This document shows, piece after piece, positions 2,837-43,290 of a stretch of DNA of 64,000 bases. Position 1 is the stretch's first letter. Every line of letters begins with the position of its first letter. The DNA lies in contig CAVQHA010000007.1 of the NCBI GenBank assembly GCA_963712215.1, forward strand, positions 143,583-207,582, in the 5' to 3' direction. The notes below the pieces were generated by a model. The model saw only the letters and a list, made by a program, of their open reading frames with translations, had not been told where the DNA came from and made no database searches. Origin of the DNA: an uncultured Methanomicrobiales archaeon (GTDB taxonomy: Archaea; Halobacteriota; Methanomicrobia; Methanomicrobiales; JACTUA01). The translations under genes were made by a program, and so were the position numbers.

Positions 2837-3349
2837 TTTCTCCACGACCCGCACATGGTCGCCGCGGACGGTGATGGGGATGGGGACCACGGACTCGTAG
2901 AGCTCGACCGTGATCTCCTCCTTCCCCATGTCGACCCTCTTCACGACGGCCTTCTCCCCCTTGAAGGGGCCGGCGATGAGCTCGACGATCGTCCCCTCGT
3001 CGATCCCGCTCACCACGGGCTTCGGCACCAGGAAGTGGGCGACCTCCTCGAGCTTCGTCTCGCCCTTTACCACCGCGCGCGCATGGGGGATCATCTCCAC
3101 CAGCTGCTCGATCCGCGCATGACTCTCCGGGGTCTCGACGAGCACGTACCCGCGGAGCTCGTCGGGGACGATGATCGCTACCACCTTGATATCGGTCTGG
3201 GTCTCGACCGCCTTCTTGATGCTGTCAGCAACCGCCCGCTCCTGCTTCGCGGTGGTCTTGATCGCAAAGATCTTGTTCCCCGCCGTGGCGGGGTTCTCCG
3301 TCGGCACCGGAGTCTCCGGGGGTTTTACCTCGTCGGTCATGAGAACCAC
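2822..3349 (-). CDS. nusG: Transcription elongation factor Spt5 (NusG)
   Basis: Intact 175-aa ORF with NGN ([21 protein letters not shown]) and KOW ([14 protein letters not shown]) regions, between secE and rpl11. The start may instead be the ATG at 3340. Confidence 0.9.
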
Positions 3350-3561: not shown

Positions 3562-4696
3562 CTACTTCATGAAGTCTATCTCGAAATGCTTGGCAACCCT
3601 CCGGGGTGCCTCCTTCTCGGATCTCCCGTAGATCTGGGGGGAGTGGACGCCGGTGACCACGAGCATGGTCCGCATCCGGTGCTGCATGGTCGGGTCCACC
3701 ATCGCGCCCCAGATGATCCGGGCGTTCGGGTCCACCCGGTCGAAGACCTCCTGGACGACCCCCTCGGCTTCGGCGATGGTCATGTCCGGGCCGCCCACCA
3801 CGTTCACGAGTGCGGCGGTGGCGCCCGAGATGTCCACGTCGAGGAGCGGGGACCGCAGCGCCTTCTTCACGGAATCGGCGGCCTTGTCCTCGGCATCGCT
3901 CTCGCCCATCCCGATCATGGCGACCCCGCCCCGCTCCATGACCGTCCGCACGTCGGCAAAGTCCAGGTTCACGAGGCCTGGGAGGGTGATGAGCTCGGTG
4001 ATCCCCTTCACGGCCCGCATGAGCACCTCGTCGGCTACCTTGAAGGCGGCGTAGAGGGGGAGCCTGGGGACGACCTCAAGGAGCCGGTCGTTCGGGACCA
4101 CGATGACGGTATCGGCGATATCCCGGAGCCGCTCGAGGCCTGCCTCCGCGTTCTCGCGCCGGATGGAGCCTTCGGCGGTGAACGGCAGGGTGACGATCGC
4201 GATGGTCAGGGCGCCCTGTTCGCGGGCGGCTTTTGCGACAACCGGTGCTGCGCCTGTCCCGGTCCCTCCGCCGAGGCCGGTGGTGAGGAAGACCATGTCG
4301 CAGCCCGCGACCGCCTTTTTGATCTCCTCCACCGATTCGACGGCCGCCTCCTCCCCTACCTGCGGGATGGACCCGGCCCCGAGCCCCCTCGTCCGCTGCC
4401 GGCCGAGGAGGATCCGGGTACTGGGCCTGGGTGCGGATCAGGTGCTGGGCATCCGTGTTCATGGCGATGAGCCGGGCACCATGGATCCCCTCCTCCATGA
4501 TGCGGGTGATGGTATTGGACCCGCTCCCCCCGCAGCCGATGACCGCGATCTCGGTCCGCAGCTGGGAGAGAACCTCCTCGAGCTCCTTATCAGACTGGGG
4601 GGCGACAAACGGTGCAACGGGCGGCTGTGCGGCAGCCGCCATCGCCTTCTGCTCCACCTCGCCCCTCTCCAACGCCTCTTCGATCACGGACTTCAT
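3562..4696 (-). CDS. ftsZ: Cell division GTPase FtsZ, interrupted by one frameshift
   Basis: The N-terminal fragment (frame of 4076..4696) reads [17 protein letters not shown]...[12 protein letters not shown]. The C-terminal fragment (frame of 3562..4332) reads [15 protein letters not shown]...[15 protein letters not shown]. The frames join at about 4414-4418, where a C/G run carries one extra base. Confidence 0.9.
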
Positions 4697-6238: not shown

Positions 6239-7471
6239 GCCTCTTTCTCAGGGTCGTCACTCTCGAGGAAGCCGTCAGCGTGATCCTGGGGATCGCCCCG
6301 CATCCCACGCAGGAAGAGGTCGCCCTGGGGGAAGCCCTGCACCGCGTCCTCGCCCGGGATACGATCACAGGGGAAGATATCCCCGGGTTCGCACGGACGA
6401 CCGTGGACGGTTACGCGGTCAGGGCCGCGGAGACAGTCGGGGCCGGGGAGTCCCTTCCGTCCATCCTCCGGATGGCAGGGGAGGTCTCCATGGGAAGAGA
6501 ACCGGGCGGTCCCCTGGGGCGAGGTGAGGGGATCTACCTCCCGACAGGTGCCATGCTCCCGCCCGGCGCTGATGCCGCCGTGATGATCGAGTACACGGAA
6601 CGGATTGGGGACGATATCCTGGTAAAGAGACCCGTAGCCCCGGGAGAGAATGTCATCCTTACCGGAGAGGACTTCCCGAAAGGGGCCGTCATCCTCCCGA
6701 AAGGTACGCGCCTCTCCCCCCGGGATATAGGGATACTTGCTGCCGCCGGTCATGACAGGGTCACCGTCAACCGGATGACCGGTTATCGGGGTCATCTCCA
6801 CGGGAAACGAGCTGGTACCCGTCAGCGCGAAACCCGGCCCCGGGGAGGTGAGGGACGCAAACGGCCCAATGTGCGCCGCGTTCGTGGAAGAGGCAGGGTG
6901 CAGCCCCAGGTCCTATGGGATCATCAGGGACGATCGGGCTCACCTCGGTGCAGCCGTGGACAGGGCAACGGGAGAATGCGACGTGATCCTCATATCGGGT
7001 GGCTCGTCCAAGGACGTGCGGGACCTGGCAGCGTCGATCATAGCGGAGAAGGGCGAGGTGCTCGTCCACGGGATCGGGATCGCACCCGGGAAGCCAACCA
7101 TCATCGGTCGTGCAGGAGGAAGACCGGTCATCGGCCTCCCCGGCCACCCCGCATCCGCCTATGTGATCCTCCATACCCTTGCAGGGCCCCTCCTCGCGGC
7201 GATGTCCGGGTCCCCGAGACCCGAGAGGAAGGTCCAGGCGATACTCGGCGAAAACATCCCGTCCCAGAAGGGGAGGGTGGAGTTCGTCCGGGTCAGGATC
7301 GAGGGGGGCAGGGCCATCCCGTGCTTCGGAAAGAGCGGTCTCCGAGCAATCCCGCTCTTTGGGAAGAGCGGTCTCCTCAACACCTTCGCGGGGAGCGACG
7401 GGCTCATCCAGGTGCCCGCCGGGAGCGAGGGCCTCGAGTCCGGTGAGACCGTCGAGGTGATCCTCTGGTGA
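6235..7471 (+). CDS. moeA: Molybdopterin molybdenumtransferase MoeA, one frameshift
   Basis: N-terminal frame: MSLFLRVVTLEEA...GFARTTVDGYAV...LPTGAMLPPGADAVVMIE. C-terminal frame (6848..7471, extended upstream): PVIGVISTGNELV...ILISGGSSKDVRD...GKPTIIG...GLPGHPASAY. The junction is at about 6772-6778. Confidence 0.88.
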
Positions 7472-34510: not shown

Positions 34511-34618
34511 GAGGCCGGGGCCGAGATTCGAACCCGGGTCGGGGGATCCACAGTCCCCTAGGATAACCAACTACCCCACCCCGGGAAATATACCCTTTTC
34601 GATTGGCCGGTGAATCTG
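34511..34618. repeat. Direct repeat L (tRNA-His plus ~33 nt of its 5-prime flank)
   Basis: Near-identical to 35530..35638. The differences are G/C at tRNA position 1 and CGATTGG versus CGTTTTGG in the flank. Confidence 0.9.
34513..34585 (-). tRNA. tRNA-His (anticodon GUG), copy 1, with a C1:C72 mismatch
   Basis: Identical to copy 2 except at position 1 (C instead of G), so the first acceptor pair is C:C. The anticodon loop is CT-GTG-GA. G-1 is not encoded, and the discriminator is C73. Confidence 0.75.
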
Positions 34619-34693
34619 GGGGAGGAGAAGTAAGGAGAATATTCTTTATTTTTATAAAAACAAATGAATATATATTACGACCACGTATAAATA

Positions 34694-35011
34694 TTGATGA
34701 TAAATCTCTTAGAAATATTAATCTCTCGCTTCCTAATGGACCTCTTTTATTCTCTACTTCTATCATTGTTTATTTTCGCAATTGGATTCCCAGGATTCCT
34801 CTTCTCGATAACCGAATCGCGGGAAGCGAATAAAAAATTTAAATTTACAGTTCTTCCAGCCCATCCTGAATTCTCACGCAAATTACCTAATTTTATTAGG
34901 AGATTCGGGTTTAAAATAAGAGATTATGCAGAAATTCTTTTTTATCTTGAGATTTTTCATTTGTATTATATTCTTCTCGGGTGGAATAATGCTAAAATAA
35001 TGCCTGAGTAG
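34694..35011 (+). CDS. Orphan small membrane protein in the AT-rich islet
   Basis: 105 aa with a hydrophobic N-terminal segment (LFYSLLLSLFIFAIGFPGFLF), a Lys/Arg/Phe-rich middle and AT-rich codon usage. The ATG is at 34697. Confidence 0.4.
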   Translation: MMINLLEILISRFLMDLFYSLLLSLFIFAIGFPGFLFSITESREANKKFKFTVLPAHPEFSRKLPNFIRRFGFKIRDYAEILFYLEIFHLYYILLGWNNAKIMPE

Positions 35012-35091
35012 AAGCTCATCAAGAACATAACGCCATCATAATTATTCCGGCGAAAAAAGCGAGAAAATATTTCTATGGTAATGGTATTGAT

Positions 35092-35499
35092 TTGTTGATC
35101 AAATATTTCGATAACGCATTTCCTTACAAAATTTATTTTTGTGATACAAAATTCAAATTAGAACAGGCAATATTGGATCCAAAGACTATTTGTTTATGGA
35201 TTTTTGGGCACGGCGATCATGGTGGAGTGAGTTGTGATGATGGATCGCTTATCTATGAAGATTTTATAAAATTTTGTAATACCTGTAGGATTTCTGTCCC
35301 TGAAAAAAAGTATATTTTCCAATTTCATTGCAATAATGGGCCTAAAATTTCACTGGCTGAATTATTATCTCACAATTGTGGGTTTGTAACAGATTTTAGT
35401 CATACCATGTTGATGAATCGGCAATTTATAATAAACATTATCGAATATTTCGAATACAAATGTGGATCTCATCCTTTTAAGAAATTATTCGATTTATAA
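35092..35499 (+). CDS. Orphan protein in the AT-rich islet with a His-Gly ... Cys dyad pattern (possible clan-CD-like Cys hydrolase)
   Basis: 135 aa with a TTG start. It contains ICLWIFGHGDHGG and, about 48 residues later, KYIFQFHCNNG, each after a hydrophobic strand. Confidence 0.4.
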   Translation: MLIKYFDNAFPYKIYFCDTKFKLEQAILDPKTICLWIFGHGDHGGVSCDDGSLIYEDFIKFCNTCRISVPEKKYIFQFHCNNGPKISLAELLSHNCGFVTDFSHTMLMNRQFIINIIEYFEYKCGSHPFKKLFDL

Positions 35500-35529
35500 T
35501 ACCATAGTTACGGATGACACTAAAATACT

Positions 35530-35638
35530 GAGGCCGGGGCCGAGATTCGAACCCGGGTCGGGGGATCCACAGTCCCCTAGGATAACCAACTACCCCACCC
35601 CGGCAAATATACCCTTTTCGTTTTGGCCGGTGAATCTG
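35530..35638. repeat. Direct repeat R (tRNA-His plus 5-prime flank)
   Basis: Partner of 34511..34618. Confidence 0.9.
35532..35604 (-). tRNA. tRNA-His (anticodon GUG), copy 2, canonical
   Basis: GCCGGGG-TG-GGGT-AGTTGGTTA-TCCT-A-GGGGA-CTGTGGA-TCCCC-CGA-CCGGG-TTCGAAT-CTCGG-CCCCGGC-C. G-1 is not encoded. Confidence 0.9.
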
Positions 35639-35801
35639 ATAATAATATCCCCCTCGCCCTTAGTTTCGCGCCCCTCGCCCTGAGTACCGCGCACCTCGCC
35701 CCGCGGGAACCCGCAGGAAGCAGGGGAATGGGCAGGTTTATGATGGTGTGAATAATAGTACCTTCACCTTTTCACCGAGGATACACGATGGAGGACGGAC
35801 C

Positions 35802-41635: not shown

Positions 41636-42646
41636 ATGCAGGAGACAGAGAAGGTTAAGATCCTCCAGACAGAGAGGGAGGCCCTCAAGAAGCGCTCGAA
41701 GGAAGTATCCAAGGAGCGTGAGCGGACCGGGCAGGACTATGCCGAGGTGGTCTGCCCGGAGTGCGGCGGGCGGCAGCTCGTCCATGACTACGAGCGGGCG
41801 GAACTCGTCTGCCAGAATTGCGGGCTCGTCATCGACGAGGACTTCATAGACCGTGGTCCCGAGTGGCGTGCCTTTGACAATGACCAGCGGATCAAGCGGT
41901 CCCGGGTGGGAGCCCCCATGACCTTCACGATCCATGACAAGGGCCTCTCCACCATGATCGACTGGCGGAACCGGGACTCCTACGGGCGGGCTATCTCGTC
42001 CAAGAACAGGGCCCAGCTCTACCGGCTCAGGAAGTGGCAGCGGCGGATCCGGGTCTCCAACGCCACCGAGCGGAACCTGGCGTTCGCCTTGTCGGAGCTC
42101 GACCGGATGGCCTCGGCTCTCGGGCTCCCGAGGAACGTCCGGGAGACGGCGGCCGTGGTGTACCGCGACGCGGTGGACAAGAACCTCATCCGGGGAAGGT
42201 CCATCGAAGGGGTCGCGGCCGCGGCGCTCTATGCGGCCTGCCGGCAGTGCTCGGTCCCGAGGACCCTCGACGAGATCGCGGAGGTATCCCGGGTCTCGAG
42301 GAAGGAGATCGGCAGGACCTACCGGTTCATATCGAGGGAGCTCGGCCTCAAGCTGCTCCCGACCTCACCCATCGACTATGTCCCCCGGTTCTGCTCAGGC
42401 CTCAACCTGAAGGGGGAGGTCCAGAGCCGGGCGGTGGAGATCCTCCGCCAGGCCGGCGAACGCGAGCTCACGAGCGGGCGTGGCCCGACCGGTGTCGCGG
42501 CGGCCGCCATCTACATCTCCTCCATCCTCGGGGGAGAGCGGCGGACCCAGCGCGAGGTCGCCGAGGTTGCAGGAGTCACCGAGGTGACGATCCGGAACCG
42601 GTACAAGGAACTCGCCGAGAAGCTCGACATCGAGATCATCCTCTAA
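41636..42646 (+). CDS. tfb: Transcription initiation factor IIB (TFB)
   Basis: Intact 336-aa ORF with the zinc ribbon [24 protein letters not shown] and two cyclin-fold repeats. Confidence 0.95.
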
Positions 42647-42709: not shown

Positions 42710-42781
42710 GGGCTCGTAGATCAGGGGTAGATCGTTACGTTCGCAACGTAAAGGCCGCGGGTTCGAATCCCGCCGAGTCCA
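42710..42781 (+). tRNA. tRNA-Ala (anticodon CGC)
   Basis: GGGCTCG acceptor with G3:U70, D stem GATC/GATC, anticodon loop TT-CGC-AA and T arm GCGGG-TTCGAAT-CCCGC. Confidence 0.9.
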
Positions 42782-43290
42782 CTCTTCTTATTCTGAATAG
42801 TTTTCTTATTTGATAGGTACCTCGCTACCTTTCGGCGACCGAAGGTCGCCCCGGGGTCGAGGGCGGAGCCCTCGGTCCGGAACGCCCTGGCCGCGGGTTC
42901 GAATCCCGCCGAGTCCATTTCCTTGAGTTCTTTTGAGATCTGTCCTTCGGCGACCGAAGGTCGCCCCGGGTTCGAAGGGCGGAGCCCTCGGTCCGGAACG
43001 CCCTGGCCGCGGGTTCGAATCCCGCCGAGTCCACTCTTCTTATTCTGAATAGTTTTTCTCATTTGATGAGGTAGACCTGGATCCTACCCTTTTCGGCGAC
43101 CGAAGGTCGCCCCTGGGTCGAGGGGCGGAGCCCTCGGTCCGGAACGCCCTGGCCGCGGGTTCGAATCCCGCCGAGTCCACTCTTCTTATTCTGAATAGTT
43201 TTTCTCATCTGATGAGGTAGACCTAGGATCCTACCCTTTTCGGCGACCGAAGGTCGCCCCAGGGTCGAGGGGCGGAGCCCTCGGTCCTGG
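42782..43290 (+). repeat. Tandem array of 3 full and 1 truncated units, each ending in an exact copy of the tRNA-Ala 3-prime 29 nt
   Basis: GGCCGCGGGTTCGAATCCCGCCGAGTCCA ends at 42781 (the tRNA), 42917, 43033 and 43179. Each unit also has the hairpin GGCGACC-GAA-GGTCGCC (42834, 42949, 43095, 43242) and a conserved GGGCGGAGCCCTCGGTCCGGAACGCCC segment. Confidence 0.9.

Follow-up and report, generated by a model that had tools for sequence, protein, structure and literature searches.

Direct repeats of tRNA 3' parts that are left by integrative elements are well known, and at a tRNA-Gln gene of Pyrococcus yayanosii 44-bp repeats flank the element PYG1 (PMC9897764). The locus described here lies downstream of a tRNA-Ala(CGC) gene in a 64-kb stretch of DNA from an uncultured Methanomicrobiales archaeon, referred to below as the window. 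It resembles the archaeal attL/attR repeats in that the repeated sequence is the 3' part of the tRNA from about the anticodon loop, with the intact gene at one end, that foreign DNA stands between the copies in some relatives, and that partial copies are miscalled as tRNA (L010; L-numbers denote loci of relatives, which were viewed in stretches of 8-14 kb). It differs from them in that the units are 116-146 nt long and iterate up to four times, that an integrase was not found, and that every scar has a two-hairpin module, which also occurs without a tRNA part.

In Streptococcus, CIME/ICE tandems are built as integrase-less, att-flanked elements accrete next to integrative elements. Tandems of phages and ICEs have been described as well (PMC13651849). 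As in the CIME/ICE tandems, small, putatively att-bounded and non-autonomous segments are stacked here at the 3' end of a tRNA or gene, with repeated att sites between them. The streptococcal tandems are bacterial, kilobase-scale and have an identified integrase, whereas no recombinase and no free partner element was found for the array in the window. Integron cassette arrays with folded attC sites have been reported in Archaea. Common to these and the present locus are a polar array extending from one primary site, sites that are structured and apparently strand-specific, "cassettes" that are short or empty and occasionally replaced by genes, and spacer types that are reordered between genomes. 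Unlike integrons, the array has neither IntI nor an R/L box consensus, the sequence of its sites is highly conserved beyond their structure, and its direct repeats measure 27-80 nt as opposed to a shared core of ~7 nt.

Structured RNAs and repeats also invite comparison. As in AlaRS minihelices and microhelices, the tmRNA TLD and mascRNA, one unit of the array (unit 2) can be drawn with a G3·U70 acceptor, A73 and a T arm, and the Rfam models of tmRNA and mascRNA give sub-threshold alignments to the units. In contrast to AlaRS minihelices and tRNA-like domains, the pairing is neither conserved nor thermodynamically favored, and it competes with the second hairpin of the module. REP/BIME elements, too, are short GC-rich hairpins just downstream of genes, but they number tens to hundreds per genome as against ~1-3 for the archaeal module, which has a fixed two-hairpin make-up and is tied to tRNA-Ala. 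Unusual here are the miniature, iterated scars, the single conserved two-hairpin module across an order, and the presence of that module away from tRNA genes.

Results

Anatomy of the array downstream of tRNA-Ala

The tRNA-Ala(CGC) gene, which ARAGORN placed at 42710-42782, lies immediately downstream of the TFB gene (41636-42646), and the genes upstream of it are TFB, RNase P p30, SRP19, and cobW. The flanks of the array in the window are conserved host genes. The last 29 nt of the tRNA gene (42753-42781) are the first copy of a 29-mer that holds the end of the variable loop, the T arm, the acceptor 3' strand, and the discriminator A. An earlier note on this DNA, made by reading the letters alone, had reported that this 29-mer recurs three times downstream of the gene. 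This was confirmed: the plus strand carries four exact copies, starting at 42753, 42889, 43005, and 43151, and the number expected from shuffled sequences is zero. A 22-mer, TTCGGCGACCGAAGGTCGCCCC, which holds the hairpin GGCGACC-GAA-GGTCGCC, is likewise present in four copies (42831, 42946, 43092, and 43239), and TRF describes the array as 2.4 copies of a 146-nt period with 96% matches. The division of the array into spacers, hairpins (HP1 and HP2), and tRNA-derived parts is given in Table 1.

Table 1. Features of the tRNA-Ala array, in positions of the window
Feature	Position	Strand	Remark
tRNA-Ala(CGC) gene	42710..42781	+	ARAGORN; Rfam RF00005, 69.7 bits
Spacer S0	42782..42833	+	T-rich, 82% identity to S2
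Unit 1 HP1	42834..42850	+	GGCGACC-GAA-GGTCGCC
Unit 1 HP2	42851..42880	+	Extended hairpin CCGGGGTCGAGGGC-GGA-GCCCTCGGTCCGG; includes the "acceptor" heptamer of the earlier note
Unit 1 linker and 29-mer	42881..42917	+	Linker AACGCCCT
Spacer S1	42918..42948	+	Unrelated to S0, S2, and S3
Unit 2 module	42949..42996	+	HP1 42949-42965, HP2 42966-42996; folding z -2.5
Unit 2 linker and 29-mer	42997..43033	+	
Spacer S2	43034..43094	+	
Unit 3 module	43095..43142	+	HP1 43095-43111, HP2 43112-43142
Unit 3 linker and 29-mer	43143..43179	+	
Spacer S3	43180..43241	+	97% identity to S2
Unit 4 (terminal)	43242..43290	+	Module alone; HP1 43242-43258, HP2 43259-43290

Three complete units, of 136, 116, and 146 nt as read from the sequence, follow the tRNA gene, which bears out the range of 116-146 nt that had been given for them. 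The fourth is without a tRNA part and is indeed truncated near 43290, as had been stated; it ends after ...GGAGCCCTCGGTCC, the tRNA-derived part being gone beyond GGAAC, and its HP2 has 13 bp (CCAGGGTCGAGGG/CCCTCGGTCCTGG). The shared opening CTCTTCTTATTCTGAATAG that had been seen in three spacers is found at 42782, 43034, and 43180. Spacer S1 instead matches a spacer type (...TTCTTTT..GATC.GTCCTTC) that is found in L001, L033, and L109. The near-identity of S2 and S3 indicates that the segment of S2 and unit 3 was tandemly duplicated recently. A stretch of 64 nt, from GGGCGGAGCCC through CCA, is identical in units 1-3, the spacers of which are 48-82% identical. The sole variable patch among these three units is the heptamer that the earlier note had taken for the 5' strand of an acceptor stem; in unit 2 this heptamer, GGGTTCG (42968-42974), lies inside HP2.

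The earlier description of HP1 stood in part. The perfect hairpin is present on the plus strand, but its complement is a 7-bp stem with a UUC triloop and not a stem capped by C(UUCG)G; such a tetraloop on the minus strand would put the HP1 stem out of register. The HP1 loop varies in relatives, so a UUCG cap is not conserved. A 113-aa open reading frame on the minus strand (42721-43062) is made of the array repeats and is very unlikely to be a gene, and the HP1 loop length of 3-6 nt means that any reading frame is broken.

A conserved two-hairpin module

HP1 and HP2 together make up a module of ~45 nt that is conserved across Methanomicrobiales. It begins to appear 30-90 nt beyond the 3' side of tRNA-Ala, and in most cases a tRNA copy running from the anticodon loop to the discriminator comes next. 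HP1 reads GGCGACC-loop-GGTCGCC with the loop motif GNA; on the tRNA (plus) strand the loops are GAA (21), GCA (19), GGA (6), and GTA (3), plus tetraloops of the GNNA type. HP2 reads (T)CGA(R)GGGC-GNA-GCCC(Y)TCG(G) and has an extended form of 10-13 bp in the lineage of the window. Paired changes in HP2 turn CGA/TCG into CGAA/TTCG or GCGA/TCGC, and one pair in the RNAalifold alignment occurs as GC (19 sequences), AU (15), and GU (10). The HP2 region folds better on the plus strand in 66 of 78 copies, with 126 G·U pairs versus 24 on the opposite strand. Within the window, the folding z-score of the module is -3.9 in unit 4, where none of 200 shuffles was equally stable, and -2.5 in unit 2. The module appears to be a selected, strand-specific structure, which may act as RNA or as single-stranded DNA. 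The remark that conserved structured spacers are unusual for att scars is one that we share, and the structured "spacer" is a real module that spans the order.

Copies that stand alone, without a tRNA part, have only these ~45 nt in common. A scan of 185,579 species returned 1-2 module loci per archaeal genome; the copy number is ~1-3 per genome, and the module is chromosomal in many species. In the 64-kb window it is present at one locus, and with so low a copy number a REP/BIME element was rejected. The module has no match in Rfam, none among IMG/VR viral contigs, and none in phage or plasmid collections. A search of the full-text literature returned general background on att-derived tRNA fragments alone (PMC9897764) and no description of the module, which appears to be undescribed.

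A bacterial repeat family, largely from human-gut contigs, has the form CGTAGG-GGCGACC-CTTGC-GGTCGCC-CGCGGGAGGGGC-AGA-GCCCCTCCCCTACG (L052, L055, L057, L059-L061, L065, L068-L071, and many other metagenome loci). The stem of HP1 and the apex of HP2 recur in this family, which is flanked by GTAG and occurs in high copy in arrays of other GC-rich hairpins. This family looks REP-like, and its resemblance to the archaeal module is probably a matter of chance or convergence. At L044 (~4480-4570), three tandem 31-nt copies of TCTCGCTCGGGAATCCGAAAGGAAAAGAGCG lie just upstream of a standalone module.

Shared architecture and decay of the tRNA copies in relatives

The part of the unit that does not derive from tRNA was sought by a pattern scan of species-representative genomes and metagenomes and was found in Methanoculleus, Methanolinea, Methanoregulaceae, and unnamed Methanomicrobiales. 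The TFB protein of the window is encoded in identical form on at least nine other metagenome contigs. The arrangement of tRNA-Ala followed by n units of spacer, HP1, HP2, and tRNA 3' part recurs at 30 or more independent loci, with n ranging from 0 to 3 and loci with n = 0 being common. Between lineages the spacers are unrelated, and the module and the position of the junction are constant. The tRNA-derived part begins in the anticodon loop and follows the local tRNA in sequence, and homology reaches that point in L010, L047, and L054: the L010 units carry an exact TTCGCAA, and the L047 units carry TCTGCAA beside a tRNA-Ala(TGC), whose T stem ACGGG/CCCGT they share. The stem GGGCG/CGCCC is confined to one lineage and is absent from Methanoculleus-type and L047-type units.

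The tRNA copies differ along the array. Those proximal to the tRNA match the local tRNA exactly, and the last copy is decayed; when tails were aligned to the local tRNA, those of proximal units scored 28-36 on a scale of 42, and that of the last unit scored at most 12 in at least 12 arrays. Intermediate decay is seen in L002, where the T arm is kept and the acceptor strand lost, and in L033 and L094, where the T arm is lost. Identity to the tRNA has a sharp edge. In the window, the 29-mer is 100% identical in three units, although S0 and S2 agree at only 82%, and the 17 nt upstream of it match the tRNA at ~56-65% (10 of the 18 columns aligned, or 11 of 17 by eye). Direct repeats sometimes extend beyond the end of the tRNA, by ~30 nt in L013.

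One L010 unit (3023-3093) is called a second tRNA-Ala(cgc) by ARAGORN; in annotated genomes of Methanomicrobiales, units like this one can cause tRNA genes to be overcounted. The arrays also break assemblies, and several of them sit at contig ends. The segment from the anticodon loop to the T arm is recurrently deleted (L005, L001 at 4233, and L022), and in these variants HP2 is fused to the acceptor 3' strand (...GCCCTCGGTCGAGTCCA) as one long hairpin, the third pair of which is G·U.

Extra DNA next to the tRNA or the module

At L019, a segment of 1.7 kb with 31-41% GC, in flanks of 63-68% GC, lies between tRNA-Ala and a unit, and the native-type spacer TCCGTTCTTT comes after the unit instead of after the tRNA. 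This segment is clearly foreign. Its composition shows its origin; at the other loci of this kind, only the presence of extra DNA is recorded. In the cultured Methanoculleus frigidifontis FWC-SCC1 (L024), tRNA-Ala and a unit are followed by 3.3 kb of accessory DNA with GNAT, methyltransferase, and WD40 genes and then by a module. At L006 and L083 a DUF8173 gene is located between the tRNA or tail copy and the next module; it lies behind a module that is truncated in the HP2 loop, and this boundary is not that of a clean cassette. HNH-type genes directly follow the tRNA at L003 and L004. No recombinase Pfam match was obtained for any cargo open reading frame tested, no integrase or other recombinase gene was found in the cargo and flanks examined, and searches of viral contigs returned no viral relatives of the cargo reading frames.

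Comparable arrangements occur away from tRNA-Ala. At L017, L062, and L102, a segment of tRNA-Ala fragment, spacer, and module adjoins an AT-rich island next to EF-1alpha. At L030 (minus orientation, module at 6241), the module lies between two 58-nt copies that are 96.5% identical and correspond to the final 58 nt of the upstream open reading frame, stop codon included. The topology of repeat, module, and repeat is that seen at tRNA-Ala, here at a protein gene. A DGR-like VR/TR pair was rejected for this repeat because its two differences are not adenine-specific and a reverse transcriptase is absent nearby. Flanking repeats were also observed at L032 (27 nt) and L011 (80 nt). In the window itself, two complete tRNA-His(GTG) genes surround a very AT-rich segment of ~0.93 kb on the minus strand (34512-35640), each with ~40 nt of identical upstream promoter region. 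This arrangement has the look of another insertion linked to a tRNA, one that duplicated the gene in full and not the tail alone.

Discussion

Origin of the array

The best explanation, to which we give about an even chance of being correct, is that recombination at tRNA-Ala, as a hot spot of insertion, gave rise to the array, which would consist of stacked att-type scars together with a recent tandem duplication and would not be a set of tRNA-like genes. Each unit would be an attR-type scar in which HP1-HP2 is joined to a copy of tRNA-Ala from the anticodon loop to the discriminator. Archaeal integrative elements that target tRNA genes carry just this segment, by which the gene is rebuilt when they insert. 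New insertions at the intact tRNA gene would push older scars outward, where they would decay, which would account for a last unit without a tRNA part. Unequal crossing-over between repeats may alter the copy number locally, and S2/unit 3 and S3/unit 4 look like a recent duplicate pair. The junctions would then have been made by a site-specific recombinase, and the module would be the element-side arm of the attachment site. In its favor, the direct repeat is identical to the 3' part of the target tRNA, in four copies of the 29-mer, the tRNA-derived parts follow the local tRNA, identity to the tRNA breaks off sharply, decay is polar, and L019 has foreign DNA bounded by repeat copies. The constancy of module and junction among lineages with unrelated spacers, the extra DNA at other loci, the topology of L030, the segments by EF-1alpha, and the tRNA-His insertion in the window also speak for it. 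A cognate integrase gene was not found among the cargo reading frames tested, and a free or circular attP form was found in none of the viral contigs, phages, and plasmids. These negative results and the small size of the units speak against att scars; at 116-146 nt, each unit could only be an element that is miniature or has undergone heavy deletion. The earlier note had offered serial integration as its alternative reading, and this fits the locus better than its main proposal, given the tRNA 3' part, the polar decay, and the foreign segment of L019.

If this explanation is correct, the array would document, in little space, how a single archaeal tRNA gene was inserted into again and again, a structured module of ~45 nt would mark the distal end of each inserted segment across a methanogen order, and the locus would provide a handle on the mobile elements, recombinases, and attachment-site organization of Methanomicrobiales. 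To our knowledge, the mobile elements and recombinases of this order are almost unknown. Were the module a host RNA element, it would represent a new conserved non-coding motif linked to tRNA-Ala.

Weighing of the rival explanations

The main proposal of the earlier note was that the units form minihelix-like RNAs of ~66 nt that keep G3:U70, the identity determinant of AlaRS. On this reading the units would be transcribed and processed into tRNA-like RNAs with an acceptor stem, a T arm, and one extra stem, which AlaRS would charge or bind and which would serve as a decoy, a regulator, or an alanine donor. The pairing from which it started can be drawn: GGGTTCG of unit 2 is able to pair with CGAGTCC at all seven positions, with G·U at position 3, as a perfect acceptor-like helix with A73. 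Moreover, units 1 and 2 align to the tmRNA model of Rfam as a domain of acceptor and T arm at 28-31 bits, ARAGORN calls one L010 unit tRNA-Ala, the T-arm-deleted variants L005, L001, and L022 are still able to pair GGGTTCG...CGAGTCC(A), and proximal units keep the T arm and acceptor strand perfectly. However, the 65-66 nt RNAs are no more stable than shuffled controls (z -1.8, -1.5, and -1.0), and in their minimum-energy folds the ends still pair although the T arm is gone. Variation among units 1-3 is limited to the heptamer, so that the acceptor pairing has a single mismatch in unit 1 and is down to 4 of 7 positions in unit 3. The heptamer is sequestered as the 5' strand of HP2, and HP2 is also conserved in copies from which the acceptor 3' strand is missing. 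The extra stem GGGCG/CGCCC is confined to one lineage, the helix can form in Methanoculleus-type units only with a bulge or four wobbles, and neither conservation nor covariation of the helix was found across the related copies. Distal units decay by losing the T arm or the acceptor strand, and proximal copies match the local tRNA exactly, without compensatory changes, which is what conversion or recombination would produce. T-runs lie upstream, and the spacers have no conserved promoter-like box. Scans with tRNA models point the same way: at the gathering score of 29 bits only 42710-42781 passes, RF00005 reports no unit at E<=10, and no unit in the window reaches the tRNA threshold of Rfam or ARAGORN. 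With unfavored folds, a variable heptamer, and a competing HP2, the AlaRS minihelix is not supported, and we regard it as very improbable. A neutral tandem repeat that arose by slippage, with no selected element, is likewise very improbable. The 146-nt period with 96% identity from TRF and the 97% identity of S2 and S3 would suit it, but the module is near-identical across Methanomicrobiales families with flanks that cannot be aligned, 64 nt are identical in units 1-3 despite spacers of 48-82% identity, and the junction is identical in all lineages. The comparative data already contradict slippage alone.

A serious rival is a model in which HP1-HP2 is a host structured element of the tRNA-Ala transcription unit or of the 3' ends of genes, such as one that acts in RNA 3'-end formation, processing, or stability, and no mobile element takes part. 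Illegitimate and then homologous crossing-over would duplicate the segment of tRNA 3' part, spacer, and module, and gene conversion with the tRNA would keep the 29-mer identical. The module, being low-copy and chromosomal, with many loci of n = 0, could be such an element. It is conserved across families with spacers that are 82% identical (S0 versus S2), unrelated (S1), or unalike between lineages. Without exception it comes shortly after a tRNA or a sense open reading frame and shares its strand (L029, L030, L046, and L006), and it is on that strand that it folds better and that the excess of G·U pairs is seen. The paired insertions in HP2 agree with this model, as does the frequency of loci with n = 0. 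Most arrays end in a module, as duplication of tail, spacer, and module predicts; the flank after HP2 (TCGGCAAACG) has microhomology to the anticodon loop and stem (TTCGCAACG); and Methanolinea shows stable inheritance of orthologous copies that stand alone (L032, L063, L103, L122, and L130). The L013 repeat that continues past the end of the tRNA also fits tandem duplication better than a fixed att core. Left unexplained by the host element, however, are the DNA of 31-41% GC that lies exactly between the tRNA and the module plus tail at L019, and the translocated segments at the AT-rich island by EF-1alpha. Archaeal transcription would be expected to terminate at the T4-T5 runs of the spacers and so not to reach the module, and no U tract follows the module. 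In the two likeliest metatranscriptomes, a related unit reached 0-4% of the depth of the neighboring TFB mRNA, in data that consist of assembled Logan contigs for related Methanoculleus-type loci (L021 and L027) and break at repeat boundaries; three of the "RNA" runs hold contigs of 60-93 kb, which indicates that DNA is present. On balance the host element with unequal crossing-over is possible but on the unlikely side. A further reading is that Methanomicrobiales have a chromosomal cassette platform, in which HP1-HP2, as a site that folds strand-specifically and has GNA-triloop hairpins, forms with the tRNA-Ala tail the recombination site of small mobile cassettes, with tRNA-Ala as the primary site and a recombinase that has gone unrecognized. 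This would make the locus a functional analogue of integron attC x attI that is unrelated in sequence. It shares with integrons the features set out in the opening section and is considered decidedly unlikely. An integron cassette array proper was rejected, as there is no IntI gene by the primary site and the module contains no GTTRRRY/RYYYAAC boxes.

Other candidates and a further repeat in the window

Several further identities were considered for the units, of which a tmRNA-like domain and a C/D-box sRNA were rejected. The two matches to tmRNA scored 31.1 and 27.8 bits against a threshold of 47, with ~310 model positions deleted, and ARAGORN called none; these sub-threshold matches stem from similarity of the acceptor and T arm alone. 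Spacers S0, S2, and S3 do contain the TGATGA and CTGA motifs of a C/D-box sRNA, but the order is wrong for one, and other lineages do not conserve the motifs. A split or intron-containing tRNA would call for a complementary leader or a bulge-helix-bulge, neither of which emerged at the array, and HP1 and HP2 are self-contained hairpins. Elsewhere in the window, at 2651-2840, an intergenic 55-nt tandem repeat is present in 3.5 copies with 68% identity, each copy containing two short hairpins, GAGGAC...GTCCTC and CGGAAAACCG...CGGTTTTCCG.
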